In this document: piece by piece, positions 2,988 through 21,945 of the stretch
Layout of the letters: every line of letters begins with the position of its first letter
Numbering within the stretch: the first letter of the stretch is position 1
Source: Curvularia clavata
Lineage: Eukaryota
NCBI GenBank assembly: GCA_023920165.1
Contig: CP089280.1
Location: forward strand, 2,356,001 to 2,420,000
Direction: 5' to 3'
Length of the DNA stretch: 64,000 bases
Translations under genes and position numbers: made by a program
The notes under the pieces: model-generated
The model's input: only the letters and a program-made list of their open reading frames with translations
Database searches by the model: none
What the model was told of the DNA's origin: nothing

Positions 2988-4454
2988 ATGTCAGTCGCGT
3001 CCTCCGTCAAACGTGCAGTCATGGCCACTCCACCAACAGAGAGTCGCAAAAAGGTGCTGGAAGGAATTTTCGCCGTTAACAAGACACAATGGGCGTCTTC
3101 GGCCGGCGTCCTACGTGACCTGCAAGAACATTTCGCCCGTTCCTCCCTGATTGCGCCTTGGCTGGAGAGCCAGAAACGGTCGCTTATCTTGTCGCATGCA
3201 AAACCAAAACACATCAACAACCTCAAAGTGAAGCTCGGCCATGGCGGGACTCTGGATCCAATGGCGACTGGTGTCTTGATCGTCGGGCTAGGAAAGGGCA
3301 CAAAATGTCTACAGCGTTTCCTGGAATGTACCAAAACATACGAATGTGTCGTGCTGTTTGGAGCCGCCACAGACAGTTACGATGCTGTAGGAAAGGTGGT
3401 GAGCAAAGCACCGTACGAGCATGTCACGAAAGAGCTAGTGGAAGAGAAGCTTGCGCAATTCCGGGGCAAGATTATGCAGAAGCCCAGTGTCTTCTCAGCG
3501 CTCAAGGTTGACGGTAAGAAGATGTACGAATACGCAAGAGAAGGCAAAGAGATACCTGAAGTAGCTGCACGACCGGTAGAGGTGGAGGAACTGGAGCTTG
3601 TAGAGTGGTTTGAGCCAGGAAGCCATGACTATGCGTGGCCAAAGGAAGAGGTCGATGACACCGAAATGGAAGGCGCAAAAAAGCTGCTTGGTATCAGGGA
3701 AGAAGATGCAAAGGTTCATGCGAACACCATGGCGCGAAAGGGACGAAAGCGGTCGCGGTCGCCGGAGAGCGACAGCGTTGAAGGTGCCGGGAAGCAACCA
3801 AAGATTCCAAAGTCAGACACTGAGCCAGCCATGTCTGGTGCTTTGCCATCACAGGACGCGTCAGCAGAGGCAGCCGGAACACCTCAGGATGCCGCAGCGA
3901 AATCCATAGTTGATCCACAGCCACCAACAGAAGAGAGACCAGCAACCTCAGTCGAGCAAGCAGAAGCAGTAGACGAAGCACAAACACAGAGTGACGCACC
4001 CTCATCCACACCGTCCCAACTGGCACAGCCCCCGGCTGCCCGCCTGCGCATGACTGTCACATCTGGCTTCTACGTCCGTTCGCTCTGCCACGACCTCGGT
4101 CTCGCCTGCTCCTCCCTTGGCTTAATGTCTTCTCTGATCCGCTCTCGTCAGGGCGCCTACACTCTTGGCAAGAATGTTATCGAGCTCTCTGATTTTGACT
4201 CTCCTGAAAAATGGGAGCCCCAGCTTCAGCAGCAGCTTGAAGAATTCATGGAAAAAGAGGGCTGGGAAGCAGAGGAGCTAGAGGATGATGAAACCTGGCA
4301 ACAGAAGAAAAAAGAGCGCCTAAGTGAGAGGAGAGAGGACGACCGGGATAGGAGTTACCGAGGCAGTGGGAAGAACAAGTGGAATAAGGGCAAAGGAAAG
4401 TACTCGGGCAACCGGTACTCCAAGAACATGGATGGAGGGAAAAAGGAAGCTTAA
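2988..4454 (+). CDS. PUS4: tRNA pseudouridine-55 synthase (TruB family)
   Basis: Catalytic KLGHGGTLDPMATG motif, K-x-Y motif, SALKVDGKKMYEYAREG and VTSGFYVRSLCHDLG. Confidence 0.92.
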   Translation: MSVASSVKRAVMATPPTESRKKVLEGIFAVNKTQWASSAGVLRDLQEHFARSSLIAPWLESQKRSLILSHAKPKHINNLKVKLGHGGTLDPMATGVLIVGLGKGTKCLQRFLECTKTYECVVLFGAATDSYDAVGKVVSKAPYEHVTKELVEEKLAQFRGKIMQKPSVFSALKVDGKKMYEYAREGKEIPEVAARPVEVEELELVEWFEPGSHDYAWPKEEVDDTEMEGAKKLLGIREEDAKVHANTMARKGRKRSRSPESDSVEGAGKQPKIPKSDTEPAMSGALPSQDASAEAAGTPQDAAAKSIVDPQPPTEERPATSVEQAEAVDEAQTQSDAPSSTPSQLAQPPAARLRMTVTSGFYVRSLCHDLGLACSSLGLMSSLIRSRQGAYTLGKNVIELSDFDSPEKWEPQLQQQLEEFMEKEGWEAEELEDDETWQQKKKERLSERREDDRDRSYRGSGKNKWNKGKGKYSGNRYSKNMDGGKKEA

Positions 4455-4627
4455 GAATTTCTTGATGATGGAATGGTATTGATTTTCTAAAAAGAAAAGA
4501 CCAGAAAACTATATATTGATACCCCGCAACAGCGCCTTCTAATTTAGGTTGCAAGTTTGGTAGATTAGCATTCGCCAATGACACAAGATGTGCATAGATG
4601 CAGTACTTTAAAGAAAAAACTCCTTCT

Positions 4628-6139
4628 TCAGACGTCCACTTCAGAATTTCTCCGACTTGAACTTTGCCTCACGCTCCGAAAACTACCGTGAGTATCAGCG
4701 TCCGAAGCACCATGCACCTCGTCCTTCCTATCTTCGTGGTTTATGAAGAGAAAAGAGAGCACCATGATCGCAGCACCGACCCAGTATAGAGCGCTGGCGT
4801 ACTGCGAGTCCAGCACCATCTGTCCAACCAGTGAACATGGAATCGTCAGACTAAGGCCGACAGTAACGATAAGCGGCGATGTAAGCAACATGGCATATGC
4901 CCAGCAAAAGTCTGAAACGAGGGATGACGCGCTGTTGATGAGGACAATGTTGAGAATGCGGGATGTAGGCGGGAGCTCGAACGGCTCGATGCCAGTAAAA
5001 TGCAGAATGATGAATCCAGGCCAGAGAAGCAGAACGTTGGATAGTCCAACCAGACCGAAGAAGAGGGGCATGTTGACCTTTGTCTCATCGCCAATCTTAG
5101 CCTTCATGAAAACAGTGTAGAAGCCGTATAAAACAGCAGACACAAACGCCATCACATCGCCGATCGCCAGCTCGCGGGGTGTTTTGTGTGGGAAAGACCC
5201 GCGATTTTCGTCGGTGTCGCCGGATACATCGACCATGGATATCAGAGCTACACCACCCAGAGAGGCGAGAACACCGACCAGCTTAAGCAAGGTAAAGCGC
5301 TCGACGCGCATCAAAGAGCCCAGCAACAACGTCCAGATACTCGATGTGGAAGCCAGAATGGTAGAGCTGGCGACCGTGGTGTATTCCAGACAAGCCGCCG
5401 CAAAATAGTTTGCCAGAAACCAGAGTACGCAGAATTCGAGCGCTAGTTTCGCCGTATCATGCAGTGTCAACCCTTCCTCAGCATCTGCGCCTACGTCTCT
5501 TGCGCTGCCTAAACTGTGTGATCCATGGATGGATGACGCCAGCAATACCTCGGCGGCTTCATCATTCTGAGTCTTGTTCGAAGGCGCCAAAGAAGAACCA
5601 GATTCGTGCTCGCGGAGCAGTGTCCATTTCCCAGCCTTGCGTTGCAAAAGTTCGTAAATGCGTGTGAGAAGCGGTTGGCGAGGTTGGCGAGCGATGTTCG
5701 GTTGGCGGTAGTCGACCCAGAGGCAATGTAGAAGCATGGGTAGTAAGGGTAGGATGAAGAAGGCGGTATTGATGTAGGTTACGAAGTAGGGTTTCGAAAA
5801 CGAGTTGTCTGCAAATATGGTCTGCTCATACGTTAATTTCTATATGGTACTGGTGCTGACAGATCAGATGGAAGGCCAACTTACACTTGCCAGGAAGTTA
5901 CTCGCAGTCCACAGAAACACCGTCGCAAGGAGGAGCGTTATTCCAACAGCATGTCTGATTTTGCCTCCCCACACTGCCTTCTGCTCCTTCCCATCTGTCC
6001 ACTGGCTGGCTTCGCTGGCTGGGCTCTCAAGGTAATCCTCGCCTCGCATGTACGCGCTCTCGTCGGAGACGTCGCTCACGTCGCTCACGCGAGGACTGAG
6101 GGGCGTGGTTTCGACCAGCTCTTCCCGCCGGGGTATCAT
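4628..6139 (-). CDS. EamA/DMT-family (SLC35F5/Thi74-like) multi-pass membrane transporter
   Basis: Exons 6139-5885 and 5821-4628 join in frame across a GT..AG intron (FLAS|TIFADNSFSKPYFVTYINT). Multiple TM helices; LTSPLIVTVGLSLTIP motif. Confidence 0.85.
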
Positions 6140-6707
6140 GGTTGAGAAAAGTGGTAGAGATTATCGCGGCTGGGCTCGCGTGATGGGCAAGTCAGGGAGG
6201 GTCCTCGGGGATAAACGGAGTCACGGCTGGAGATTGCGTGGAGGCATGAAACAGGATCCGAGTGCCCATCAATTAGTCGGTGAAGGAAGGGAGAGATGAG
6301 GAACTGCGGTTGCACGGGGTGCTTCGGAGTGACACGCGGACAGCAGCGAACTATTATGTTGATTCGGGGGGGTTCTTGTCTCAGATGGCGGTACTAGGGT
6401 CCCGCGTGAGCCACAGTTGGGTGTGGCTGACCCACGCTACTGCGGCTATTCGGCGCATGCATCAGCACGAGCTGACATCACCCTTGTACCGAGAGATATC
6501 GATGATGTATATTGGTATGCAGCTACGTAGGCTTTCCATCGTTAAAGTCATGTCCCCGCAAAAAAATAAGTTACAAGATATGCTTCCTCCACAAGAAGTA
6601 TGCCAAAACACCAAACTCCATTCCAACTCCAAATGCAAGGCGGCATTTCGGCGGGTAGATAATCACTTGGCCTTCTCATAGACGTCGCTGATTTGTCGCG
6701 GCGTACA

Positions 6708-7658
6708 CTAGCATGCGCAGCCACCCTCGTTGCCCTTGAGGTCAATCGGGATTGTCTCCGGGAAATCGTTGCCGAAGTCACCTACGTCTTCTTGCGCGAG
6801 AGCTTGTCGTGCAATGACTACAAATGTTAGCTATCACTGACTCTAGTTTGCCTGAAGGACCTGGCGTACCCTCGAAAGCTTGCTCAACGTTGATCGCCTC
6901 TTTGGCACTGGTTTCGAAGTAGGGAATGCCGCCCTTTGACTGGCAAAAGGTCATGGCGCGCTTGGACGAAATCTATTTCTCGGGTCAGACAAATTTGCAA
7001 GTCGCCAGCGCATGTAACACTCACCATCCTTTTGCTTTCTTCGACATCGATCTTGTTACCGATAACAACCTGTACTTATCAGTAAACCGCCTTTTTGCCG
7101 TATCTTGGACATCCACCCACAAATGGAAAGCTCTCTGGGTCCATAGGGCTAGCCTGTACGAGGAACTCGTCCCTCCAGCTGTCCAGTGTATCGAAACTCT
7201 TCGAGTTGTTGACGTCGTATACGAGCACGCAGCAGTCAGCTCCACGGTAGAAGGCAACGCCCAGCGATTGGAAGCGCTCTTGACCGGCTGTGTCCCAGAG
7301 CTGTGCTCTATTAGCCTGCTGTTGATCCAGGCAATCAGCACACACCCACCTGCATCGTGACAAGCCTGTCATCAACGAGCACTTCCTTGGTCAGGAAATC
7401 GGCGCCGATGGTCGCTTTGTAGCTTGCGCTGAACTTCTTGTTGACCTGATCACTTTGCGTAAGCACTGCCGTGTGGTTTCAAGCCGCTGCCTTGTTGTCT
7501 CAGAGCTGGATTCCAGGGCTTTCGTACATATTGGTTCATCAAGCTCGTCTTGCCGACCCCGCTGTCCCCGAGGATAATGACCTGTGCGCATTAGCTATGA
7601 TTCGGCGTCTGGCACGAAGCTTCTTTACCTTGAGAAGAACCTTCTTTCTTGAAGCCAT
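6708..7658 (-). CDS. YPT7: Rab7/Ypt7 small GTPase (multi-exon)
   Basis: Exons read [49 protein letters not shown]...|[29 protein letters not shown] and ETSAK motifs; C-terminal GCAC* (CxC prenylation). Confidence 0.95.
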
Positions 7659-8526
7659 GGTGTGATTTGTGTGCGCAAAGTGCGGAACTAGGTGCGGCGC
7701 GATTGACTCAAGGCGCGAAGCTCAGTAGTCTGCGACGTCAAGCCGGGTGGAATGCGGGGTTGTATAGCAAGGACGTCGATGGCCGGCCCTGAAGATCGGG
7801 GGTTCTGGAGGGCTTTTCTCGAGAAACCGGGGAGCTGAAAGCGTTCTATGCGCAGGTACGGTGAGGAGATGTACAGCTCTGCTGCCAACAATCGATGATG
7901 GTTGATGTCAAGGCTGGGCACGGACTCTGCGCTAGGCTGCCCGCCCCATCATTTGATAACATCTGAGCTCGGTCCAGCCGCGCACCCACCTGACCGTCCC
8001 TTCACCCTTGCTTCTACGTGTCACCGACAGGCATTTCCCCTCTCTTACCCCTCTGCACTCCTCTCTACAGCAACCGCTTACCCGCGTGGCGTATGCTTCT
8101 CTAAAGCTGTTGCAAAGCCTCAAAGTCCAGTGGTGACTCGAGATGCCAGCTAACCTAAAGCCCATGGATTTCGTTGCTCACCATCTGCTCATCAAGGATA
8201 ACAGTTTACCTCGGCCGCAGCGAACATAGTAGAAGAACACGTGACTATCCGCTTCGAAAAATATCCTTGCAAAATACCTCGAGTAACCCTCAAACAATCA
8301 GCGAGAGCAAGCATAGTAATCCTTGTTGCATTGTCGGAGTAGACGTGACGGTGATACTAGCGTCTAAGATGTCATGAAAGCAATTCTTTCAAGCCACGTG
8401 CTACGAGAGACCACACCCGACAGAAGATAATCAAGCATTTTGCTCGATTCGCTATCCCAGGCTTTGTGGCTACATGGCTGATATAAAGAAACTTGTATAT
8501 TGTCGAAAGCACGAAAACTCATACTA

Positions 8527-8605
8527 ATGTCCTTCCCCGAGTGCTGGGACACCCGCCGTGCTGGGACAAATGAGGGGTACTTTGACTTTCAGCACTTCGC
8601 TTTCT
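8527..8605 (+). repeat. Left terminal inverted repeat
   Basis: ATGTCCTTCCCCGAGTGCTGGGACACCCGCCGTGCTGGGACAAATGAGGGGTACTTTGACTTTCAGCACTTCGCTTTCT; matches the reverse complement of 16248-16326. Confidence 0.95.
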
Positions 8606-9192
8606 ATGTCCGCGCTGAGAATCGCTAGTAACTTGTGTTGCCTATATGCTAGAGGTATTTATAAACATATCTTAACACTTCTACCGAAAAATTACATCGC
8701 TATTACTACTCTTATTGCGTAAGTTACAACAGACCTTTCTTTCGTGCACGACGGTGTTGCTTTGCTACAATCCTGTATAGAACCTTGCAGCGTCTAAGAA
8801 ACTCTAAGAAATTGCAGTTATGCCTAAGTGACCTTACGACAGCGCGGTAAGCTACGTTTGACCTTGTGGCGCCTACAACACCTATATTCATACAAGATCG
8901 CAGTCGTGATCAGTACCTCGGCTCGTTCGGAGCGGCTCTGCAAATCTTATGTAACTATGTTTAGGTAATTAGTAAACTAATAGTTAATTATATCTCTAGC
9001 GGCTGTTAGGGCTGTGGCGCAGCACTAATAGGCGGTTTGAGCATATGAGCTCTAGCGGAGGTCGTCCTTAAGGGAGATTGTTAACAACTAGTTAGAACTG
9101 TAACTGCTACATATCGATTACTTATAACTATTACGCCGGAAAACTTGTACTAGTTATATTTTTTATCAATATGAGTCCATGTAATTATAGCG

Positions 9193-12100
9193 CTAGAGAA
9201 TTCTAAGCAAAACCACACGGCCAGACATAAGCCCTAGACAAGCTACTTGGTCGTGTACTATAGTCAAGCTTGATCGACACTCTGGCGGAAGCCATAGGAA
9301 GCGTTGTTGGTTGCGGAATATCCACTGATCCTGCACTCGAATATACGAGCACTGCGACCTTGGCTTCAAGAGTGATGTGCCAACTATAGCTTGAGGTAAA
9401 GGGATATCGCCTTGGTACGTGTGAAGTACCCGGCTATCTGGCGAGAAGCTGATATACGAAGTGAAGCCATAAGGGCTATCTAGCGTACTGCGACATGTCC
9501 CCGTCGCCGCTTCCCACAGCCGTACTGTGTTGTCTTCAGATGACGACGCGACTAGCTGCCCATCTGGCGAGAAGGCCACCGCCCTAACCCGCTTGGAATG
9601 GCCCTTGAGCGTGCTGCGACACGTCCCCGTTGACGCTTCCCACAGCCGTACTGTCTTATCAAAAGATGCCGACGCAACTATCTGCCCGTCAGGCGAGAAG
9701 GCTACCGCCCAGATGTCTGAGGAATGGCCCTTAAGCGTGCTACGACACGTCCCCGTTGACGCCTCCCATAGCCGTACTGTCATGTCATCAGACGCTGACG
9801 CAACTAGCTGCCCGTCAGGCGAGAAGGCTACCGCCCATACATCTGAGGAATGGCCCTTAAGCGTGCTGTGACACGTCCCTGTCGCCACTTCCCACAGCCG
9901 TACTGTCTTGTCTAAAGATGCTGACGCAACTAGCTGTCCGTTTGGCGAGAAGGCTACTGCGTTGACACTCCTAGAATGGCCCTCGAGCGTGCTGCGACAT
10001 GTCCCTGTAGCCACCTCCCACAGCCGTACTGTGTCTTCAAAAGATGCTGACGCAACTAGCTGCCCGTCTGGTGAGAAGGCTAACGCCTTAACACTTGTAA
10101 AATGGCCCTCGAGTATGCTGCGATGCGTCCCCGTCACTACCTCCCACAGCCGCACTGTGTTATCAGAAGACGCTGATGCGACTAGCTGCCCGTCTGGCGA
10201 GAAGGCCACCGCCCAGACATTCATGGAATGGCCCATGAACGTGCTGCGACATGTCCCCGTTGACGCCTCCCATAGCCGCACTGTCGTGTCGCCAAGTGCC
10301 AATGCGACTAGCTGCCCGTCTGGCGAGAAGGCCACATCGTGGGCATACGATGAACTGCCCTTGAGCGTACTGCGATACGTCCCTGTCGCTGCCTCCCACA
10401 GCTGTACTGTGTTTTGGTCTAGCGGGAAGGATCCAGGGTTGTCAGGCGAGGAAATGCCCTCTAGCGTGCTGCGACACGTCCCCGTCACTGCCTCCCACAG
10501 CCGTACTGTCTTGTCGCCAGATCCCGACGCGACTAGCTGCCCGTCTGGCGAGAAGGCCACCGAGTTGCCTAAAGATGCTGACGCGACTAGCTGCCCGTCT
10601 GGTGAGAAGGCCACTGCGCCGACATATGAGGAATGGCCCTCGAGCGTGCTACGACACGTCCCTGTCGCCGCCTCCCACAGCCGTACTGTCTTGTCATCAG
10701 ACGCTGACGCGACTAGCTGCCCATCTGGCGAGAAGGCCACCGCCCTAACTCGCTCAGAATGGCCCTCGAGCGTACTGCGACACGTCCCTGTCGCCGCTTC
10801 CCACAACCGCACTGTCTTGTCATCAGACGCTGACGCAACTAGCTGCCTATCTGGCGAGAAGACCATTGCGCTAACTCGCTCAGAATGGCCCGCAAATGTG
10901 CTACAACACGTCCCTGTCGCCGCTTCCCACAACCGCACTGTCTTGTCATCAGATGCTGACGCGACTAGCTGCCCGTCTGGCGAGAAGGCTATCGCTGTAA
11001 TATATGAGGAATGGCCCTCAAGCGTGCTACGACACGTCCCTGTTGCCGCCTCCCACAGCCGTACTGTCTTGTCATAAGATGCCGACGCAACTAGTTGCCC
11101 GTCTGGCGAGAAGGCCACTGCGCCAACACCTGAGGAATGGCCCTCGAGCGTACTGCGACATGCGTCCCAGTCGGCTTCTTTCATAGATAGCATCTTGACC
11201 TTTTCTGGCACTTGGTCTACAAATGTTTGTCGTATTAGGCTCTTCTCTGGTGCGAACACTAGCGCTGAGTAATAGATCTGCAACGGTGAATCTGCAAGCA
11301 CAGATTGGAACCGCAGCACGAACCGCTTAGCGTCATGAAGAAAGTCTAAAACTAGCTCTGAAGAGGGCTATATTATATATTAGTAGAGTTGTAGGAATAT
11401 TTCCCTATAAAGATCTTACACTAGTAAGTGCCTGAAGGCTGTTAAGCAAGTTGACGCATCTGCTCGATTCTCTTACAAGGCTCATAGCTTCAAGCCAATG
11501 AAGAAGGTGCTTCTGTAGAAAGAGATGCGTCACGTCCCTGTCGACGATGCCTTGCCCACTCTGCTTGAGATGGTCAACCCAGTAGCGACACGCATATTGT
11601 AGATCAGGCGGCAGCCTAGTAGCGACTGTCTGCTCATCTACCTCGCTCCTTAGTACTCCAGGGCCTGGAAGGCCGCATATGTCCTGATGAAGACCGCCAG
11701 ATCCAGACATAAGCTCAAGGCAGCGAGATGCAAGCTTCTGGTGTGTCCTTTTCTCATCCACCCAGAACGGGCTCTTTCCTTGCTTTTGGGGGTCGAGGAG
11801 GAACTCGCGAAAGGACAGGTGGAGTGGCCTGATAGGAACGTCCTCCCTGTCAGGAATACTAAGAACGGAGTGCAAGGCATCTAACCGGCATTCGACTTGT
11901 TTCTTCGGAACTTGAAGGAGGCGCGCAAGGGGGCTGATAGGAAGTGGACTTGCTAAGATAACTATGCTACCTACGAGTTCACGGAAGACGCGCAGCCAAT
12001 CTTCTCTATCTCTTTCTTCCTGCTCAACAAGCAACTGGTCTAGGACGGGAAGGTAGGTTCGGTCGAGCTGTGAAAAAGCTGTTTTTGGATACTGCAAGAC

Positions 12101-13478
12101 CTTATTCAGGTACACTTCGGGGTCGCCTCCTTTACTACCAACATACCGACACACAGTGGCAGCGTAGATGAACAACGGCACAGCTAACTCAACTAGCGCT
12201 ATGATATGCTGTTGAGCTGGCCAGTCTGAGGCTAGCATGCGTTCTTTTCGTATTATACTAAGCTTATGCTCTAGGAACAGACGGATGTCATGCTCGATCG
12301 TGCTCCTTGGTACTTCGTGGAGCACTAGGTCTTGGTACGTGCCGTTTGGCATCTCCTTGAAGCCTAGGCGGATGTGGAGCTCTGGCCGACTGGTGACCAC
12401 GATCCGTAGCGGCACTGGGCGAATGTCCTTCGTCTGAGCGAGCAGCCGAAGGATCGCTCGAACGTCTGCTTCTCGTTCACATTCGTCTAGCGCGTCGATC
12501 ACGACAACTCGCACCAAGGCCCGCGAGTGAGTCTGCTTTATCCCCAAAAGTGGCTGTAGAATAAGCTTCTCGAACTGGTCTTTTAGAGCTTTGTGTGAGA
12601 TAGCCGGGTCCTCGTCGAGCGTCTTCTTAATACCGGGCAGCATCCCTGGCTCGCAGGCGACTAGGTCCGTGGCGATGGTAGCAAAGAACCGTGACGCGTT
12701 GCCACGCTCGCCCTCACCTTTCTTGAAGAAGAAGCTTGCTCCTAGCTGGCCGCGCCTGGCAAATGATTCGGCAATAGTCCGCGCAATTGTGGACTTTCCT
12801 GTGCCAGCCATGCCGCTAAGCCAGAATATAGACTTGCTATCCTTATCTTGTGCCCATTTTGCGATGTCATGCAGCAGTGCGGTGCGGGTGTTTGGTAGGC
12901 ATCGCGCGTTGTGTTCCTCCGTGTGTGAGTCGTAAGACGCTCCTTGGGCGATAGGTAGTTTAGCTAGGTCTAGTTTCTGGTCTATGCTGAACACAACAGC
13001 CCTGTATAGCTAGTAAGATGCTGTTTCTGCGCACAACGGATCTATGTACGGAAGCTTACGTCTGATCAACCTGTAGCGCTAAGCTAAAGGCCTGTTCGTA
13101 TCCTTCCAAGCTCGAGATAATCTTGTCCACCTGCTTGCTCGTAAACGGCCATTTAAGCGCACGTAAACTGAACCGGCTCATAGTCTTGCGGGCCTTTCCC
13201 GGTTCTAGCTTCATGTCTAGGGTTTCCAGCTTGTTCAGGCATTGTTCGACCGAGTCCAGCAGCCCTTGGGTGGCAGAGAGCCGCGTCTTGTCCTGGCTGT
13301 CGAGAAGCTGCTTCATCTTCTTCAGCACGTGGTTGATGTCGCTAACTTTTCTCTTCACACGCTCGATATCGCCCTTCGCGTCCTTTACGGCCATAGAGTA
13401 CTGGACGCATAGCGACGCAATCTTGGCGGATATGTCGATTACTGCGATGACGCTTGCTGCGCCCGAAAGGCCATCCAT
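9193..13478 (-). CDS. Fungal NLR (STAND) protein: HeLo-like/Helo_like_N-type N-terminal domain + NACHT + WD40 repeats (NWD-type), ~1391 aa
   Basis: Exons 13478-13060, 13001-11420 and 11367-9193; GT..AG introns of 58 and 52 nt give one 4176-nt frame. N-terminus MDGLSGAASVIAVIDISAKIASLC...ALKWPF; Walker A WLSGMAGTGKST; Walker B VVVIDALDEC; LHLSFREFL; HLLHWLEAMSL; then the WD array. Confidence 0.92.
9440..11160 (-). repeat. Tandem 126-bp (42-aa) WD40 repeat array with high internal identity
   Basis: Unit CRSTLEGHSxxVxAVAFSPDGQLVASASxDKTVRLWEAATGT; 11 full units, one fused half-pair, one degenerate 33-aa unit and a terminal partial unit. Confidence 0.95.
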
Positions 13479-13980
13479 AACGTGAGGTCTGCGACGGAGA
13501 TAAAGTAAACTAGTCGATCGCGCCTTGTGCGGTTGTAGGCTGATGGAGTAGCGAGAATGCTGTCGGGCTGAGAGCAGTACTGCAATCCATCGTTCGCTGC
13601 ACAAGGCTGAGAGGGCTGGCACAGCTAAGCACTGTCACATCGCAGGCTGCATGGGGTCGGAAAGGCTTCGGAACCACGATTCGCCAGAGCCCGCTTGCCT
13701 ACTCTTACTGCGCACTTGAGAGGCGAGTGGAATACTACACAAACATCATCCTATCTGATGGCCTGCACCATAGTGCCATCGTTTGAGCACTTCTACAGTT
13801 TGTTAGGTTAGGTATAGTATTGAAGCGCCATTCGAAGCTACATCGCGCGCTTGCTATTTTTAGAACAAGTTCCGCTCGTCCTCTGCCGCATGTCATCAGT
13901 GTGACAGGACGCGCTTTGGTTACGTCGAGGCTGCTCGTTACCACCCCTTTGCTGGTATAACTAGCAACACACTCGCGGCT

Positions 13981-15651
13981 ATGGATCCAGCTAGTCAAGC
14001 ACTGGCTGAAGCCTTCTCTTCCGGCCAGCGTGAGACATATCGTACTATGGCGGAGAAGAGCAATGTCCCTCGCTCTACCCTTCATCGTCGTAGGCACGGA
14101 GGAACGTCGAAAGAAGCAAAAGCTCAGCGCCAGCAATACCTAACTATCGAGGAAGAGAAAGCACTTGCTTTATTCTTGCTACTAATGTCTAGTTTTGGGC
14201 AACCGGTTCGGATCAAGTACGTACCTACGCTAGCCTTCAGCATCGCACGCCGGCGGTCCACGACGACCAACAAGCCGATCAAGTCTCCAGGCAAGAACTA
14301 GGCTCGCGCCTTCGAGAAACGCCACCCTGAACTCAAAGCGAGACGAGTCAAGTCAATAGACTGGAAGCGCCATGAGAACAACATATACGATAAGACTGTA
14401 GAGTGGTTTCAGATAATTGGCAAGGTGCTGCAGGATGCAGCGGTACTGCCAGAGAATATGTACAACATAGACGAGACAGGGGTTATGCTAAGCAAGCTTG
14501 GCTCTGTCAAAGTCCTGGTAGATAAGGACGATAGACGCGACTATAGAGGTGCTGGCATGAAGCGGACGATGGTGACTGCTGTCGAGTGCATAAGCGCTGA
14601 CGGTAGGGCGCTGCTACCTCTCATCATCTGGCCAGCCTCAACGCACCGAAGTAACTGGACTACGTATCCCACACCTGGATGGCACTATGGGTTCTCTGAG
14701 AGCGGTTACAATAACTCTAAGATTAGCTTGGAGTGGCTTATGCGTGCTTTTGATTCCCAAACTAGAGACCTAGCTAACAGTAAACCGCGGGTGCTGATCT
14801 GCGACGGCTTCGGCACTCACGAAACGCTAGAAATTCTTGAATTTTGCCTTAGTAACAACATTATACTATGCCGTCTCCCCTCTCACACCTCCCATAAGCT
14901 GCAGCCCTGCGATATTGGAGTATTCGCGCCCTTGAAGACAGCCTATCGCGACCAGGTCGAGCGGCTAAACAGAGGAGGTATAGATACAGTTAGTAAGGAG
15001 CACTTCACCTCGCTATACGACCCTGCAAGGACCAAGGCTTTCACGAGGCGGAATATCAAGGCCGCCTGGGCCGCAAGTGGCTTGCTGCCTTTTAACCCAG
15101 AAAGGGTACTCCAAGACATACCAAGGCCACCTGCAGAGCTCACGGTTTCTATAGCTAGTAAGGATATGCCATCTGATCCTAGGGACGAAATACCTGTAAC
15201 ACCTGTAACGCCAGTAAACACAGAAGGCCTAGTGTCGCTTCATAACCTAATTAAACAGGACATATCTACGCTTGACGAACCAAGCAAACAGCGCCTACAG
15301 AGACGAGTACAGAAGCTAGCGAGCGCGGCTCACATCTCATTCGCCCAACAAGGTCTCCTGCAGGACCACAACCGACTATTAGCTAAGATTAACGGAGAGG
15401 CTAAGGTCCGCCGAGCGACTCGATCAGTTGTGCTAGGGAAGGCGAAGGTGATGAGCTATGAGGATCTGGAGGAGGCACGGGCAAAGCGTACTGCCAAAGA
15501 AAAGGCTATGGCGGAAAGAGGTAAAGCGAAGCGTGGTCGTAAGCGTGAGGTTGCCCAGAAGGATTTAGCTGAACTAGAGCTAATCACTCAAGCTGCAAGG
15601 ACGAGCGAAGTTGCAAGGCCATGGAGGGCGCCCGTGGCGCGGATGTATTAA
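13981..15651 (+). pseudogene. pogo/Fot1-type DDE_1 transposase interrupted by one in-frame stop
   Basis: ORFs 13981-14301 and 14425-15651 share a frame (556 codons read through). HTH-like N-terminus (NVPRSTLHRR); PGKN*ARAFEKRHPEL where W is expected; catalytic NIDETG, ICDGFGTH and LQPCDIGVF, with 35 residues between the last two Asp. Confidence 0.92.
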
Positions 15652-16247
15652 TGTTAGATCAGTGCCAAAGCACGTAGTAGTGCTTAAAACACTAGTAGTC
15701 TCTTATACTAGTTAGGCTAACTTTACAATAATTATAAACATAGAGAAGCAGCTCTTATTTCGCCTAGCCCTGTTAGTAGTTGCTTCGAGTATTTTTTTAA
15801 CACCAGAGTTTGGATTATTTGAGTATCTGCCAAAGAGACGAGGCTGTGCACAGCCACAAGGTCTTTAGCCACAGTTGATAAATTACACTAGAGCTAATTA
15901 CGTAAGGCATGTAGGATCGCTTATCGCTAGCCGAAGTAGCGATCCGCGTGGCGACCCTGTATAGCTTTGGGCAATACAGCAGGCGCGAAGCTGATGATGG
16001 CTTGCCACGTTAATATGAGGCTCTTAGGGCTGGAAACTAATATTCTTTATATACGATAGGTAGTAAAAACCTCTAAGCAGTGCTATAGCAGAGTGACGCT
16101 ATTATTCACATGGGAAAGGCTGTTTGTAACATTTACAAAAAGAGCATTAACAGCTACGTAATTTTTAGTTAGGAGGATCGGGATAGATCTACTAATAGCT
16201 ATACACCATAGCCAATTTGAATATATAGCGAATATTAGAACGTGCAA

Positions 16248-16326
16248 AGAAAGCGAAGTGTCGAAAGTCAAAGTATCCCTCATTTGTCCCAGCACGGCGG
16301 GTGTCCCAGCACTCAGGGATGGACGT
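16248..16326 (-). repeat. Right terminal inverted repeat
   Basis: Ends ...GTGTCCCAGCACTCAGGGATGGACGT followed by TA; the reverse complement begins ACGTCC. Confidence 0.95.
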
Positions 16327-17026
16327 TACTTATTTGGCAGTAGAAGAAGATGTGCCCCCGCATTTGAAACGATCTTAATGATCATGAACCTCAACTCTTC
16401 CACTCGAACGATCGTTGTTGGCCAGTAAGTAGCCCTCGGTCTTCGAGCGTTGTGAAAGCCTTACAATTCTATGGAAAGTGCGCCCAAGTGCCAGATCAAA
16501 GAGTAGCTGCGGAGGTGTCATGAGAAGAAGACTCAAACCCATGTCTTAGCAAATTGGGCACGAGAAGTGAGCGCAACATGGAACCCAGAGGTTTGGTTTG
16601 TACAATATTCCTTTTTTCTTAATGCAAGGGCAGCATCGGGTCAGCAGGAATAGCTCAATTTGTGTTCTGGCTTCTAGTAAGCAGTGCATATTCAGAGGTC
16701 CGACGCTAGCGTTTGCCACTGTTCAGCACCCCTACCTACTGCGCCATCGCTATCCTTTTTTCCCATTCCGTCATCCCTCATGTTTTGAGCAACGAGTTTG
16801 ATGAAGCTTATCAAGGTTGTTCACCGATATATACATCTACGCTTCAGCTATGACATTGTACAATAATCAACTTCACAATTGGCCGTGTGGGGATCCGGGA
16901 AGCGGGGAAGACTTTGGTTCACTACCAGCGGCAAAGCAATCGTATATGATGCCGCGCAGAGATGGATACTATTAGACCTAATTTATTTCCTGTACTCCCA
17001 TCTATCAAGGAAGAAATCAATCCAAC

Positions 17027-18140
17027 ATGTCGCAAACCAGCACCACCAACGTGGATATCGAGAGTATACCTGCCGCGATGAGAGCGTGGCAATGGTCAAC
17101 CTGTAGTACGACACTCGAGGAAGCCATATATATCAACGACTCAGCACCTTTGCCAACCGCCCGACGTCCATTATTACCTGGAGAGTCGCTGATACAGGTC
17201 TACGCTGCTGCCTTGAACCAAGTAGATTACAAATTTGCGGAGCTTCCAATTGCTGGCCGCATGGCAATTCCAAAGCCCGCAACACCCGGACTAGATTTTG
17301 CTGGAAAAGTCGTGCAGACAGGGCCGGATTGTAACATCAAGGTTGGCCAAATGGTTTTCGGCAAGGTGGAACCTAAGCAACAATTTGGTACGTTGGGAGA
17401 GTACATTATTGGTTCAAGGGCTGGTACTGTTCCAATCCCTGAGGGAGTATCCGTGGAGCAGGCAGCGACGCTAGGCGTGTGTGGCCTCGTCACATATCAG
17501 TCCATCGCACGAAATGTGAAATCGGGTGATCGTATCCTTATCAATGGTGGATCTGGTGGAACCGGTACTTTTGCTATTCAGATCGCCAAAGCATTGGGTT
17601 GCCATGTCACGACAACTTGTTCTGGTACGCATGCCACACTTCCCATCACATTGAGAATCCTAACTTTGCGCAGGTGCCAACATCCAGCTCTGTAAGAACC
17701 TTGGGGCTGATGAGGTGATTGACTACCGTAAGGATGATGTCCCTTCGCTCTTAGCAAATGGCTCACAGCAATACGACATGATCCTCGACAATGTCGGACA
17801 CCCATTCGAGCTTTACTGGAAGTCTCCATCGTTTACCAAACCTGGCGCAAAGTACGTGCAAATAGGATCACAAGTCAGCCTGTCATTCATCTACGACCTC
17901 GCATTCCGCTTCCTAGTTCCAACCTGGCTCGGTGGTGGGCAACGGCCGTTTTCATTTGGTTTCGCGTTAACGAATTTCGACGACTTTACTGCGTTAGGGA
18001 AGTTGGTGGCTAGCGGAAAGGTTTCGCCCTGCATAGACACTGTCTATGAATTCGAGGATGTTCCGACAGCATATGCAAGGCTGAGAACAGGCCGGGCCAA
18101 GGGGAAAATGGTGGTGAGCATGAAGAGTGAAGAGAAATAA
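17027..18140 (+). CDS. NAD(P)-dependent MDR-superfamily oxidoreductase (quinone reductase/RTN4IP1-like)
   Basis: Exons 17027-17624 and 17674-18140 join in frame (TTCSG|ANIQLCKNLGADEVIDY). AALNQVDYK, TPGLDFAG, nucleotide-binding INGGSGGTG and C-terminal GRAKGKMVV. Confidence 0.9.
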
Positions 18141-18353
18141 TGATCGTAGAAAATATATCCAGTGGATAAGGAAACATGGTAATATGACTAAAACATCACA
18201 GTATGTGTAAATCAGCGTTGGTGTTGGAGTGTGGGAAATGGACGTGATCATGTTTTACACTCGAATGTGTAATGCAAAGAACGGAAACGAATCAATGCCT
18301 CATATTACCGCCTAAACGCTGCTCTCGATCCTCAAGTAACGAAGATTGTTCAT

Positions 18354-19440
18354 CTAGGTAGTAGAAACAAACACGACTAGTACGGTCAAGTAGCTAGATC
18401 TGAATTAGAATGTGATGGTGGGTAGGGGTTTTACTTACGTTGCACCAGCTAAAGCAGATTCCGAATACTTCAAAGTTGAGACGCAAGAAAGTACCAGCAA
18501 AAAGAAGATGAGGGACAATACTATGATAAGCATTTTGATCCGCCGGCTATCAATGACACTACACAACACCATGGGAACAGATAATAGAAGAATGGTGGCG
18601 AACAACACCAGCGTTCGGGTGATTCTCCTAATGAGGGAATCGCGAAACATGAAGATGTTCGGATCATTGGTAACGTTGCGGTCGCAGATCTTTTAGGAAT
18701 TATCAGCGCAGTATAAAGAGCCATCGGTCCCAATGACTAACCTTTTGGGAAGATCTACCTATTTTGGTCAGTATATTCTCCAACCAAGCGTCAAGCCGGG
18801 TAGCAGCGTGATCTGGTGGCGACGAAATCGCAGAGAGGTCGTGCACATGAGTGAGATAATCAGTCTCTTCTACGTCAATGCATGGATTCCCACTTGTCCA
18901 GTTTTGCAGGCTTTGCACATCCCGGGATCTAGCTGCATCCAAATCGAGTATCTGACGGGTCCGTTGGACAAATTCATCTGTGGTCCGTTTTAGAAGAGCA
19001 CAAGTGACGCTCAGAAGGAACCCATCATACCGTATTCCGCAAGACTGGTGTCAATTTCGGCAATGCATAGCCTTCTCTGCTCATTTGCATCATCGCGTGA
19101 GCTTCCAAGATACAAAGCTGCGCACTCATCCTTATCTATTTTGTCGAGTTGCTTCTCAAGCATCGATAGTCGATCTTGCTTAAGCAGCAGTAATCGAACA
19201 CGCAAGCGCGCAAATCGCCGGCAGACTTGAAGCGATTTGTGCGATGCTAGTAGCGCAGCAAAGCGAGGATAGCCTAATCGGTACTCTTCAACTACGCTCT
19301 GTTAATCCGTAGGTAGCCTCATGTAGAGTACTGGACTGGAACTTGCTTGCTTGAGATTTCTCCTCTAATCTGTTCTTATTGGCCTCCGGAGAGGTGCACC
19401 AATCACGGAAGCTTCGAAAAGATGTTTTTAGGCGCTGCAT
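18354..19440 (-). CDS. DUF6594-like membrane protein (multi-exon)
   Basis: Exon pieces EEYRLGYPRFAALLASH...RRFARLRVRLLLLKQDRLSMLEKQLDKID, LAEY|DEFVQR...VQSLQNW, and a hydrophobic C-terminus ending AGATYLTVLVVFVSTT*. Family assigned from remembered motif pattern; start codon tentative. Confidence 0.72.
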
Positions 19441-19976
19441 CTTCAATTATGTAATGCTACCGTCTTTGACGGCTATCAGTCGCATAGCCACTTTGCTGAG
19501 TGATTCGCCTTTATACCTTTCTGTAAGTGACATTAAGAAGAATAGACTCCATCATCATCGCTTACCGTAACACGACGTTGGCTCGTTATCTTTGCTGTGC
19601 CATGGCTTTTGATAGCGCATGATGCGTCGGTCGCCTGATTGCTCGCAGCTCACCGGAAAGCCACAGGCAACTGCTCTGGTAGACACTCTTCGTGGCTGTA
19701 TTATTGTCTCAGATCCGGTCAAGACAAGGTGCAGAGTGGCTTAAGCCTCATTGGCTGCAACTGCCAATGCACAGCCTCTCAAGCATGCACGATACGTGAC
19801 TCTCCGCCATTGGCCATATTTCGAAGTGTGTGTTTCTGTTATAAGGACTACAGGCTCATTTGATACTATGGAAACACATGCAAAGCTCGCACTGCACTGT
19901 AAAAATCGTGGCCAAGCGCCTTGTATAGTTTTGAGTAAGAAATAACGCCAGAGACATTAGAGATCCTGAAGAAATC

Positions 19977-20384
19977 ATGCCACAACAACCTCGACGGCAC
20001 GTCTGCATTGAACCCGAGACAATTTGCAAAGAGCTGACATGTTGAAATCCAGACCTCCTAATGACTTTGAGCAGCAACATGTGATAGGTCAAACTACGAC
20101 AAGATTTTGGGATGGTGCTTACAAAGACCAACCCTATGCTCTTATAAAAGAGTACCCAAAAGTAAGGCCATCCCAAAACCAGATTTCGGTATAGTGCTCA
20201 CGAACAGAAACACAAATATCAGCAGGGTGATATAGTGAAATGGTTCGTAAACGGTGTTCTGCAGGGAATATACAAGATCAAAACTATTTGTGGTGAGGAA
20301 GAATATACGCTTTCAACTCCGGATGGCCAAGTCGCAAACAATGGTGTAGCTGTAGCAGGAAAAGATCTACAACCGGTGGTTTAA
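19977..20384 (+). CDS. Small (~100 aa) spliced hypothetical protein absent from the ORF track
   Basis: Exons 19977-19996, 20053-20161 and 20208-20384 (intron 2 GTAAGG..CTCAC..CAG; intron 1 GCACGT..GCTGAC..CAG, or an alternative ATG at 20039). Product MPQQPRRPPNDFEQQHVIGQTTTRFWDGAYKDQPYALIKEYPKKHKYQQGDIVKWFVNGVLQGIYKIKTICGEEEYTLSTPDGQVANNGVAVAGKDLQPVV*. Confidence 0.65.
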
Positions 20385-20607
20385 AGGTGTTCTGTGTTTG
20401 CTAGATGAACCTCTGCTATCCTTATCACGTACCTAGACTAGAGCTTTCTCGCGTAGTAGTGTTCGTATAGTAAAGCTTACTGTTGCCTAGTCAATTCACA
20501 GACATAGTAAACCCATCTAGCCTTTCAATTCACAAAACCTTACACATTCCAAAGTAGAACACTTTCCTCTCCTCACTAACGACAAAAACCCTCATAGCAC
20601 AACCAAC

Positions 20608-21555
20608 TCAACCCCCTCTCCTCACCACCATACCCACCCACACCTTCACACCAACCCACTTCCTCCCCCTCTTCCCCACCCTCGCTTTCTCTCCCTCTAC
20701 ATCCCCCTCCTTAACATCCCTCTCTCTCACCTGCAGGACCTCCAACCCCGCCTTCCCCGCCGCTCCCACCATCTCCTGAACCGTATGCACAAAACTTTCA
20801 CCCCTAACCTTAACCCCCTTCTCATCCACAAACCCCGCCTGACTTCCCGTTCCCCCCATCTCCTCATGCATATTCGTCACCAGCGCCATTCCCCTCGGTC
20901 GCAGGAGTCCCGCCAGCGAAGTGAAGAAGGTGTCGAGAGGAACGTGTTCGAGGACAAGCGTAGATACAATGGCATGGGCGGGGACGGGGGATGTATCTCG
21001 TACTGTGTCAGGAGTGAGAGAAGAAGAAGAGGAAGAGGCGGAAGGGGAGAAGACGTCGTAGCAGTCTAGGGACCAAGTTTTCCCAGCGACTAGAGCGGGA
21101 GGTAGAGAGGAAAGTTTAGTGCGTGCGATGTCGAGCATGGGCTGTGAGAAGTCGAGGCCGTGGATGTGGATGGTGGGGGGTGAGGAGGGGGGGAAAGGGT
21201 GAGAAAGGAGTTTGAGGGTGTTGCGGCCGGTGCCGCAGCCGAGGTCGAGGATACGGAGGGCTGAGTCGTTGTCGATAGATGTTTTGTTGGTGTTGACGAC
21301 TTGAGTCAGAAAGTTTGGGAGTAGAGTCTCAAGCTCAATGTCGTCAATGGCTTGTAGCATGTTGCCGTCTGAGTCGTAGACCGAGGCCCATTGATTGTAT
21401 GCGTCTTGCGTGGCTACATGGTGGATCGGTGTTGAGGACTTGGGTGGGATATACTTTGTTTGGTCCGACTCAATGGTTGAAAACGAGGCGTTGATGTCCT
21501 TGACATCGACGAGCGACGTGTCGAAGGTCATGTCGACGGATGTTGGTTGTGTCAT
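20608..21555 (-). CDS. Class I SAM-dependent methyltransferase
   Basis: 315-aa ORF; motif I RILDLGCGTGRN, GLDFSQPML, STLVLEHV, LLRPRG. Confidence 0.88.
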   Translation of the reverse strand: MTQPTSVDMTFDTSLVDVKDINASFSTIESDQTKYIPPKSSTPIHHVATQDAYNQWASVYDSDGNMLQAIDDIELETLLPNFLTQVVNTNKTSIDNDSALRILDLGCGTGRNTLKLLSHPFPPSSPPTIHIHGLDFSQPMLDIARTKLSSLPPALVAGKTWSLDCYDVFSPSASSSSSSLTPDTVRDTSPVPAHAIVSTLVLEHVPLDTFFTSLAGLLRPRGMALVTNMHEEMGGTGSQAGFVDEKGVKVRGESFVHTVQEMVGAAGKAGLEVLQVRERDVKEGDVEGEKARVGKRGRKWVGVKVWVGMVVRRGG

Positions 21556-21945
21556 GTTCGTCTTGATTTGCGGCTGGAGAGAAGAAGAAACTTGAGTGGA
21601 TGTCGTCGCCGTGTCAGACGGGTGCCTGACACCGTCTATATAACAATTACCCCATGGGCCAATGACTATTCTTCACGCCCTGGCCGCGCCCAGCTTGTAT
21701 TCAGAATTGCCTAATCGGGCAATATGTCGTGCAGGCTCCCGTAGCGTGACTCACATAGTCGCCCGTGGACTATGTTCTGGTTCGCGCTAGACAACACCGA
21801 CCCTGTTCGTCTTCTGCCGAATCACAAGCCATCTTCTTAAGACTGGAGAGAGAGCTCATCCCACACACACATATGCTAATAGTATCGTCATGACGTTCAT
21901 GTCTTATTGTTAGTATTACAAGTCATAATTGTACAATTCCCAGTT

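Follow-up and report, generated by a model that had tools for sequence, protein, structure and literature searches.

Can a DNA transposon of the pogo/Fot1 type carry a complete fungal NLR receptor gene between its ends? The question is raised by a locus upstream of YPT7 in the plant-associated fungus Curvularia clavata, which lies in the 64,000-nt stretch analysed here (contig CP089280.1, assembly GCA_023920165.1; hereafter the window). Our principal reading, to which we give a probability of roughly 80%, is that the locus holds a single 7.8-kb pogo/Fot1 DNA transposon belonging to the Tc1/mariner superfamily, with its own transposase and a divergently oriented, complete NLR gene between its TIRs.

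Two TA-flanked TIRs enclose 7,800 bp (element 8525..16328; Table 1), the element having inserted at a TA that lies some 870 bp upstream of YPT7. The two 79-bp repeats agree at 73 of 79 positions, the 11-bp word GTGCTGGGACA is present twice in the left one (8541-8551 and 8558-8568), and a weaker inverted similarity beyond them (8606-8781 vs 16072-16247) extends the match to 257 nt in total at 71%. The 38-nt TIR core has exactly two occurrences in the window, with none expected from 100 shuffles. When both 270-nt ends were compared with the interior by short-word BLAST, no internal TIR was found beside the transposase, the only matches being chance ones of 9-14 nt with E of at least 0.36; the same search of the ends found no further TIR-end matches elsewhere in the window. 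The preliminary description of this DNA had reported the pair of TIRs with TA on both sides around some 7,800 bp, the lack of an internal TIR near the 5′ end of the transposase, and a Rab7/YPT7 gene as left neighbour, and these observations are reproduced here at the same positions.

Table 1. Features of the NLR-carrying element, in window coordinates
Feature	Position	Strand	Details
Left TA target-site duplication copy	8525-8526		Joint 8524->16327 shiftable by 2 letters; single TA in empty allele
Left TIR, 79 bp	8527-8605	+	TIR alignment
Left subterminal region and NLR 3′ flank	8606-9192		AT-rich, RIP-like dinucleotide bias, GC 0.42
NLR exon 3	9193-11367	-	Linker and 13 WD40 units; stop codon 9193-9195
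NLR intron 2	11368-11419	-	52 nt, GTAAGA...ATATAG
NLR exon 2	11420-13001	-	NACHT/NPHP3_N NTPase
NLR intron 1	13002-13059	-	58 nt, GTAAGC...ACAG
NLR exon 1	13060-13478	-	N-terminal four-helix domain; ATG 13478-13476
Spacer between divergent NLR and transposase start codons	13479-13980		502 bp; presumed shared promoter region
pogo/Fot1-type transposase	13981-15651	+	556 codons; DDE_1 match, DD35D
Right subterminal region	15652-16247		AT-rich, RIP-like bias
Right TIR, 79 bp	16248-16326	-	TIR alignment
Right TA target-site duplication copy	16327-16328

The unity of this arrangement is established by an empty site. X9, a public run from a close relative labelled as a different organism, contains one 17,114-nt contig that matches 3000-8524 with 56 differences and then continues directly with 16327-19458, without an extra letter. 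The joint skips 7,802 nt with the ends TA..GT and has 255 letters on its shorter side; two letters (TA) fit either side, a single TA remains, and the NLR is gone together with the TIRs and the transposase. This clean joint leaves out exactly 7,802 bp, so that the entire unit, with the NLR in it, came in as one insertion at a TA and duplicated the TA. One contig of a further run (X3) has the same joint, but its shorter side is just 28 letters long. The empty allele anticipated in the preliminary description, reading ...CTCATAC-TA-CTTATTTGG..., has thus been found as a single X9 contig, which rules out an NLR resident beside YPT7 independently of the element.

The transposase matches DDE_1 (PF03184; E 1.7e-29, 103 bits with the cut-off at 22), and its catalytic residues D164, D275 and D311, with 35 residues between the last two, form the DD35D signature. 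HTH_Tnp_Tc5, which represents the CENP-B/Tc5-type DNA-binding domain at the N-terminus, reaches 20.3 bits (E 5.5e-4), below its cut-off of 22.2, in the intact relatives P0241 and P0122, and Pfam gave no match to it in the 106-aa N-part of the window's transposase. While the DD35D transposase described earlier is present, its frame is broken in the window's copy by an in-frame TAG (14299-14301, codon 107). Position 14300 is G in the other copies in all four runs compared, open transposases of 556-557 aa exist in relatives, and the change from TGG to TAG is of the type made by RIP. The window's copy would therefore be mobile now only with a transposase supplied by an intact copy.

The NLR gene, by comparison with the earlier claim of an intact spliced NACHT/WD40 gene, holds up: three exons separated by GT..AG introns give a spliced coding sequence of 4,176 nt that encodes 1,391 aa free of internal stops, and the junctions of introns 1 and 2 are crossed gap-free by the relatives P0252 (96% over 641 aa) and P0253, respectively. 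Walker A (GMAGTGKS) and Walker B (VVIDALDE) are intact in exon 2, and Pfam recognises NPHP3_N (E 2.1e-30), NACHT at 26.7 bits, equal to its cut-off of 26.7, and 13 WD40 stretches. The WD40 units of 42 aa correspond to 126-nt repeats at 9412-11250; a 300-nt reference segment of the array has 12 copies, 62-84% alike and with starts mostly 126 nt apart, and variation among the aligned units is concentrated at few positions. At the N-terminus, PF17111 passes its cut-off of 27.2 with 29.2 bits, while SesA, Rx_N and MLKL_N stay below theirs. The model of this domain has four helices (pLDDT 80); Foldseek placed it closest to the MLKL executioner domain (TM 0.60, E 0.41), with no matches at E <= 0.001. 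Relatives of the protein carry the source label 'HET-E-1'. The NLR would most likely act like receptors of the HET-E/NWD type. The WD40 surface would recognise a ligand, the NACHT domain would then oligomerise, and the N-terminal helical bundle would attack the membrane or trigger cell death.

A real transposon could nevertheless carry its NLR as dead weight, a transduplicated and decaying passenger without function for host or element. We consider this unlikely, albeit worth serious weight. In its favour, the window's transposase is already broken, WD40 units 5-6 are irregular (spacings of 60 and 33 aa), and Pyrenophora has transduplicated ORFs to which no use is assigned, as far as the available text of that study goes (PMC3538342). 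A RIP-like bias is also limited to the element, with TpA/ApT values of 1.32-1.54 in the ends and transposase (1.54 in the left subterminal region) against 0.71-0.76 in the flanks, and 74-82% of the differences to other copies are transitions. The NLR parts, however, are less biased (0.90-1.12), the reading frame of 1,391 codons is open with both Walker motifs and both splice sites intact, and near-full-length relatives are annotated in two other genera at 1,381 and 1,475 aa, with 94-96% identity.

If the NLR is true cargo of a transposon, the composite should be met elsewhere. Junctions were drawn from 32 listed pieces out of 1,534, in four runs (X3, X4, X9 and X19) with four organism labels. 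Both the left-end-to-NLR junction and the right end are met at further sites outside this genome: the left end joins the 3′ end of the NLR in contigs of all four runs at 95-99% identity (8563-9586 with 7 differences in X4, 8561-9510 in X9, 8576-9252 in X3, 8704-9574 in X19), including X9, where the site described here is empty, and the right end (16328) abuts differing flanks in three X4 contigs (agreement 0.57) and two X9 contigs (0.68). Stretches from X4, a run labelled as another organism, are 97.6-99.3% alike, non-coding DNA included; one of its contigs (13618-13959) covers only the spacer between NLR and transposase. Among the 32 contigs, neither a second full-length copy from TIR to TIR nor a contig bridging the coding regions of NLR and transposase was seen. 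At 13552, which is 74 bp upstream of the NLR start, two X9 contigs part from the sequence of the window, so some NLR copies have a different upstream neighbour; in X19, what follows the TIRs at 8594 and 8605 is unrelated, which means that other elements share the TIR. The earlier proposal that the element moves and multiplies its cargo thus gains the junctions in four runs and the right-end flanks in two, but not an end-to-end second copy; as no complete second copy was seen, we infer such movement from the junctions and from gene adjacency in relatives.

This adjacency, read from consecutive identifiers rather than from DNA and hence blind to gene orientation and TIRs, places a close transposase next to an NLR of the same family in three of five annotated Pleosporaceae genomes with comparable positional identifiers. 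The pairs are EOA90843.1 (NLR) and EOA90844.1 (transposase) in Exserohilum turcica Et28A, XP_014553201.1 (NLR; 94.2% over 1,371 aa to the window's NLR) and XP_014553202.1 (transposase) in Bipolaris victoriae FI3, and GGP41_007835 (transposase) and GGP41_007836 (NLR) in B. sorokiniana; both genes of each pair are listed on contigs of equal size. An NLR exon-1 ORF (94%) and a transposase C-part (93%) are, furthermore, both listed from Logan contigs of 3,684 nt. Adjacency is not visible in E. turcicum ACJQWK (NLRs 08462 and 11671; transposases 08531 and 11316) or in the C. clavata annotation (NLR 09350; nearest listed transposase 09444, only 66% alike). The divergences of the partners are incongruent, the Et28A and B. 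victoriae transposases being 97.7% alike and their adjoining NLRs 83.7%. Together, left-end junctions, right-end flanks and adjacency in relatives support cargo carriage beyond the YPT7 locus.

The same data bear on a one-off chimera, that is, a single capture or fusion of an NLR in or near this lineage, with a composite that does not propagate as a family. Adjacency would then reflect an abundant pogo family that often inserts beside abundant NLR genes; in B. sorokiniana, according to the part of the source at hand, the predominant DNA transposons are of the pogo type, and no family varies more in copy number than NACHT-WD40. The missing end-to-end copy among the contigs listed, the NLR partners of near-identical transposases being only 79-84% alike, the two of five genomes without adjacency and the X19 TIRs with unrelated sequence behind them all fit such an origin. 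It is nonetheless improbable, since the left-end-to-NLR junction recurs in every run, even in the organism with the empty site, a full-length, 94%-identical NLR adjoins a 95%-identical transposase in B. victoriae, and three chance adjacencies of these two families are unlikely.

The possibility that an NLR residing beside YPT7 came to lie by chance between two independent insertions of one transposon family can be dismissed: the TA duplication is uninformative here because every pogo insertion duplicates TA, but neither an inner TIR nor a remnant of a second transposase is present, and in the X9 allele the NLR, the two TIRs and the transposase are all missing and one TA closes the site. Both alternatives that the preliminary description had itself raised, a resident NLR and independent insertions, are excluded by that contig.

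A single NLR-carrying transposon would work in a simple manner. The transposase would bind the paired 11-bp words in each TIR, cut from TA to TA and reinsert at another TA, and cutting and reinsertion of this kind would copy and move the NLR along. Duplicate copies would then meet RIP and the reshuffling of WD40 repeats, under which NLR paralogues would arise, diversify and die out. The element would as such provide a simple route for copying and scattering NLR receptor genes around fungal genomes. That NLR-carrying pogo elements further amount to a class of 'mobile immune genes' which spreads horizontally among Pleosporaceae is a tentative and rather doubtful idea, compatible with the similarities observed: the NLR of the window matches those of B. 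victoriae and C. clavata at 94-97.6%, the E. turcica and B. victoriae transposases are 97.7% alike, and X4 has the near-identical stretches given above, all these values being unscaled to the divergence of host genes. If true, such elements would be a eukaryotic counterpart of the defence systems on bacterial transposons, each supplying further genomes and species with a finished receptor that diversifies by itself, and the receptor would favour retention of the element by protecting the host or by making carriers and non-carriers incompatible.

Our literature search found no description of a pogo/Fot1 element carrying an NLR; the nearest parallels are ToxhAT, the Starships and, in Pyrenophora, DNA transposons that carry cargo. 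Classical Fot1/pogo members are typically about 2 kb long and carry only a transposase. The window's element shares with them the DDE_1 transposase, DD35D, TIRs and the TA target-site duplication, and differs in its 7.8 kb, the 5.4 kb from the left TIR to the transposase start being mostly the NLR gene.

Among the receptors themselves, HET-E, HET-D and the NWD proteins likewise combine NACHT with highly self-similar 42-aa WD40 units that vary at few positions, going by the accessible text (Paoletti et al. 2007, PMC1805685), whereas the N-terminus of the window's NLR is a PF17111-type helical bundle and not a HET domain. Podospora NLRs lie more often near TEs, which the authors suggest may move them (PMC13449251); the portions available of these two Podospora articles report no NLR inside a TIR transposon.

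Transduplicating DNA transposons, including a hAT element with a histone H3-like gene, are described for Pyrenophora tritici-repentis, of the same fungal order, in the sections available (Manning et al. 2013, PMC3538342); what these elements carry is a coiled-coil ORF or the H3-like gene and not an NLR, and NACHT, WD40 and HET-E have no mentions in the main text to the extent available.

Starships are fungal cargo-mobilising elements (Gluck-Thaler et al. 2022, PMC9156397; Gluck-Thaler & Vogan 2024, PMC11162782), and NLRs belong, by the excerpts at hand, to the four gene families that show a strong association with Starships (PMC11162782). They span tens to hundreds of kb and use a DUF3435 tyrosine recombinase (PMC11162782), in contrast to the 7.8 kb and DDE transposase of the present element. 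A Pfam scan of five of the ORF segments between the TIRs (three NLR exons and two transposase parts) gave only NLR and DDE_1 families, with no DUF3435 captain.

ToxhAT, which the preliminary description had named as a loose precedent in the form of a ToxA-carrying TIR element, is indeed a precedent, but a closer one than 'loose' implies, because its cargo includes a Patatin-TPR gene that its authors assign to the NLR family (McDonald et al. 2019, PMC6737239). This TIR-bounded type II element of 14.3 kb, with 74-bp TIRs, is present in Bipolaris, Pyrenophora and Parastagonospora (PMC6737239). On the evidence of the passages available, it is hAT-associated, carries eight genes, is noted for the ToxA effector and has a different NLR-like architecture (PMC6737239), whereas the window's element is of the pogo/Fot1 type, with a clean empty site and a single NLR as cargo, built of a helical domain, NACHT and WD40.

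Fungal NLR repertoires are large, vary patchily from strain to strain, and evolve fast, and it is not settled how their members move. The 7.8-kb pogo/Fot1 unit in the Curvularia clavata window is a small cut-and-paste transposon of an ordinary kind that has a single complete NLR between its ends. A close relative shows the clean empty site, and other genera have the same pairing of genes. Together this offers a concrete and testable account of how NLRs could be duplicated, scattered, and perhaps spread horizontally.

As the preliminary description held, two 79-bp TIRs with a TA on either side enclose a transposase and an NLR gene. The two TIRs are identical at 73 of 79 positions, with weaker inverted similarity (71%) extending beyond them out to ~257 nt, and their 38-nt core is found at exactly two places in the 64-kb window (0 expected from 100 shuffles). 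Read from the sequence, each TIR carries two copies of the 11-bp word GTGCTGGGACA at a distance of 17 bp, plausibly a candidate arrangement for transposase binding. The statement that no internal TIR lies beside the transposase also held up: a search with both ends returned no further copy of either, be it within the element or in the rest of the window.

Coordinates and identifiers of the element, its genes, and related loci (window positions unless a record is named)
Feature	Location	Strand	Remarks
Left TA + TIR	8525-8605		79 bp; mirror of right end; read from window
Right TIR + TA	16248-16328		79 bp; mirror of left end; read from window
NLR, three exons	13478-13060, 13001-11420, 11367-9193	-	GT..AG introns of 58 and 52 nt
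Transposase	13981-15651	+	556 codons; DDE_1 E 1.7e-29
Left-end-to-NLR contig, run X4	8563-9586		7 differences, 5 gaps
Left-end-to-NLR contig, run X9	8561-9510
Left-end-to-NLR contig, run X3	8576-9252
Left-end-to-NLR contig, run X19	8704-9574
Neighbours, E. turcica Et28A	NLR EOA90843.1, transposase EOA90844.1		2,050,293-nt scaffold
Neighbours, B. victoriae FI3	NLR XP_014553201.1, transposase XP_014553202.1		118,503-nt scaffold
Neighbours, B. sorokiniana	transposase GGP41_007835, NLR GGP41_007836		2,119,570-nt contig
Adjacency not seen, E. turcicum ACJQWK	NLRs 08462, 11671; transposases 08531, 11316
Adjacency not seen, C. clavata	NLR 09350; nearest listed transposase 09444		transposase just 66% alike
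Solo TIR-like stretches, metagenome contigs	L001:4937-5042, L003:44-149, L002:1423-1487		81 nt at 95% to left TIR
Transposase matches, genome contigs	L004:10001-11251, L005:9683-11215		56-72% identity; fungal-type pogo/Fot1

The left neighbour of the element is, as claimed, a Rab7/YPT7 gene on the - strand, the insertion lying ~870 bp upstream of its start codon. Parts of window 7400-17399 occur in 20 public sequencing runs from 14 studies, with sampled words present at 0.95-0.97 in two runs of organism A (X1 0.97, X2 0.95) and at 0.23-0.59 in the others. Four of the 22 runs listed, labelled as different organisms (X3, X4, X9, and X19), were aligned to window 3000-22000 at ≥85% likeness; the word shares of the other 18, among them X1, X2, and three plant metagenomes (0.23-0.26), are not counted as evidence. 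The run evidence consists of Logan contigs, 32 of 1,534 pieces being listed, and their depth is not taken as copy number.

The decisive record is a 17,114-nt contig from X9, which matches 3000-8524 (56 differences) and then 16327-19458 (183 differences). The joint falls between consecutive record positions 9203/9204 and skips 7,802 nt with ends TA..GT; its shorter side spans 255 letters, and 2 letters fit both sides. This is the empty allele that had been predicted to read ...CTCATAC-TA-CTTATTTGG..., and NLR, TIRs, and transposase are absent from it together. That a resident NLR was merely bracketed by two independent insertions is ruled out by the same allele. Tc1/pogo-type excision usually leaves a footprint, and the clean TA in X9 is therefore read as a never-occupied state, the 7.8 kb being an insertion in the window's lineage. 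The pogo/Fot1-type unit went in as one piece at a TA. The observation behind the proposed single NLR-carrying element is confirmed and its interpretation supported. A single X3 contig with the same joint adds weak support, as one side holds 28 letters, under the 31-letter bar. In X4 and X19 the flanks are without cover; such a gap proves no absence and is not counted for horizontal transfer.

The right flank is far more variable than the left. The X9 empty-site contig differs by ~6% there versus 1% on the left, and skips 97, 581, and 219 nt (window 19458-20570). At 20500-21500, neighbouring 500-nt stretches swing in GC skew from -0.52 to +0.47, and the depth of X3 rises sharply to 103; another repeated or strongly asymmetric element may lie there.

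The element ends and the junction between end and NLR exist at other sites as well. Contigs leading from the left end into the 3′ end of the NLR are present in all four aligned runs, three of them beginning within the TIR, and the X9 contig must stem from another locus because the site here is empty in that run. Behind 16328, unlike and mutually different sequence follows in X4 (3 contigs, agreement 0.57) and X9 (2 contigs, 0.68), so the right end adjoins other flanks. TIRs in X19 pass into other sequence at 8594 and 8605, which indicates a TIR common to other elements, and two distinct X4 contigs over 14714-15090 (9 and 38 differences) imply at least two transposase copies in X4. Variants with a shorter stretch separating the left TIR from the NLR stop codon (8605-9193) occur in X3 and X9, whose contigs join 8605 to 8893, 8925 to 9193, and also 8925 to 9269.

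The spacer between the two genes (places 13679-13902) is covered by contigs in all four runs. An NLR exon-1 ORF (94%) and a transposase C-terminal ORF (93%) are both listed with a Logan contig size of 3,684 nt, an equality that would fit one contig bridging the spacer; among the contigs listed, none bridges the two coding regions, and no second TIR-to-TIR copy was seen. Two X9 contigs match the NLR plus 74 bp upstream of its start and leave the window at 13552 for unrelated sequence. The captured NLR segment may have its inner boundary at this point, or the contigs may represent an NLR copy outside a transposon.

The transposase and NLR families are also neighbours in other genera. Judged from positional identifiers in five annotated genomes, the two genes are adjacent in three and without visible adjacency in two. 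Relative to the window NLR, the B. victoriae protein is 94.2% identical over 1,371 aa and that of C. clavata 96.3% over 1,358 aa. Between Et28A and B. victoriae, the transposases are 97.7% alike and the adjoining NLRs 83.7%, which implies that the cargo evolves much faster, that it is exchanged among paralogues, or that some pairings are of separate origin. We put the probability that this is a cargo-carrying transposon family, as opposed to a one-off, at roughly 0.8.

Wider scans returned isolated parts. Scanning metagenome contigs for a 24-nt TIR core gave 3 loci (L001-L003) with one solo TIR-like stretch each (65-106 nt, 82-95%); these are solo ends or remnants, with no transposase, NLR, or second TIR at these loci, and are thus uninformative on cargo. 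A transposase search of genome contigs gave two loci with more distant relatives (L004 and L005), at which neither clear TIRs nor an NLR within 10 kb were seen, and the same search of viral contigs gave no loci. Both genome records are labelled actinobacterial MAGs, one locus lying in a 6.65-Mb "chromosome" with locus GC of 0.50; a contaminant or a chimeric assembly is the more likely explanation than a gene of bacterial origin.

The NLR gene was described as spliced and intact, and it is: the spliced CDS of 4,176 nt encodes 1,391 aa free of stops, and annotated relatives cross both exon junctions without gaps. Its earlier labelling as HeLo-like/NACHT/WD40 stands for the latter two parts, with an NPHP3_N/NACHT match (E 2e-30) containing both Walker A and Walker B, and 13 WD40 stretches. 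The N-terminus matches PF17111 at 29.2 bits (cut-off 27.2), with weaker SesA, Rx_N, and MLKL_N matches. An AlphaFold model of this domain (59-sequence alignment) forms a four-helix bundle at pLDDT 80; Foldseek gave 0 matches to it at E ≤ 0.001, the top TM-scores belonging to the MLKL executioner domain (0.60, E 0.41), and the HeLo-like label therefore derives from Pfam, the modelled fold being no more than compatible with it. The WD40 units, of 42 aa, are closely alike, with differences clustered at few positions; units 5-6 are irregular. At 10168-10746 the array contains a 279-nt step in a 126-nt series, with unit spacings of 60 and 33 aa, and looks like a recombination or deletion scar within the repeats, the frame still being open. 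Of 8,000 candidates scored against the NACHT exon, 3,126 are relatives at E ≤ 1e-30, with Pleosporales supplying the top ones, and "HET-E-1" is the source name for many.

The DD35D spacing attributed to the transposase follows from its catalytic residues D164/D275/D311, and 970 relatives score at E ≤ 1e-100 among 8,000. Relatives of 556-557 aa have open frames, with a sub-threshold Tc5/CENP-B HTH match at residues 57-121. The window frame is broken by an in-frame TAG at 14299-14301, where other copies in all four aligned runs have G at 14300 and thus TGG; the window copy is therefore now non-autonomous, with the NLR frame still open. TpA/ApT is 1.45-1.54 at the element ends, 1.32 in the transposase, 0.90-1.12 in NLR parts, and 0.71-0.76 in the flanks, and (CpA+TpG)/(ApC+GpT) is 0.79-1.09 in the element versus 1.20-1.27 in the flanks. 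By the usual thresholds, these ratios indicate a RIP-like signature in the element and none in the flanks, the NLR parts being less affected. Transitions make up 74-82% of differences from other copies, and TGG to TAG is the kind of change that RIP makes (PMC1805685).

Mechanistically, an active transposase would cut and paste the element from TA to TA and take the NLR along, both genes would be expressed from the 502-bp divergent spacer, and copies would subsequently diversify or die through RIP and repeat reshuffling. Capture might have proceeded, as one possible route, through use of the outer TIRs of two NLR-flanking elements and later loss of the inner parts; of inner TIRs the element retains no trace. 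The unit is a compact two-gene system for asking who benefits from the receptor: host, transposon, or both. For annotation, real NLR genes are lost from view when this repeat family is masked, and copy-number variation of NLRs is put down to the wrong cause if the transposon goes unrecognised.

The element has the DDE_1 domain, DD35D spacing, TIRs, and TA duplication that define pogo/Fot1 elements, and departs from them in its interrupted transposase frame, its unusual size, and its content of more than one gene. In the papers found, Tc1/Mariner and hAT elements with cargo are documented in Pyrenophora (Manning 2013, PMC3538342), and the fungal NLR movers reported are Starships, which often carry NLRs (PMC13449251, PMC11162782), with ToxhAT, a TIR element of eight genes, also holding a Patatin-TPR gene that its authors class as an NLR (PMC6737239). 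In Podospora, highly repeat-conserved NLRs are enriched near TEs relative to other genes, and the authors go no further than to suggest that TEs may move NLRs (2026, PMC13449251). A 2026 B. sorokiniana pangenome preprint finds pogo to be the main DNA transposons and NACHT-WD40 orthogroups the most copy-variable, and its available text draws no link between the two. Among main texts retrieved by full-text literature searches, none reports an NLR within a pogo/Fot1 or Tc1/mariner element; the supplementary repeat libraries of Manning 2013 and McDonald 2019 may be relevant here. McDonald 2019 (PMC6737239) also mentions, for P. tritici-repentis, a Tc1-Mariner element of 7 kb that is undescribed and could be related to the one in the window. 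Cargo-bearing elements are already known; the variant here is a compact DDE transposon with a single complete NLR as cargo, conserved across genera.
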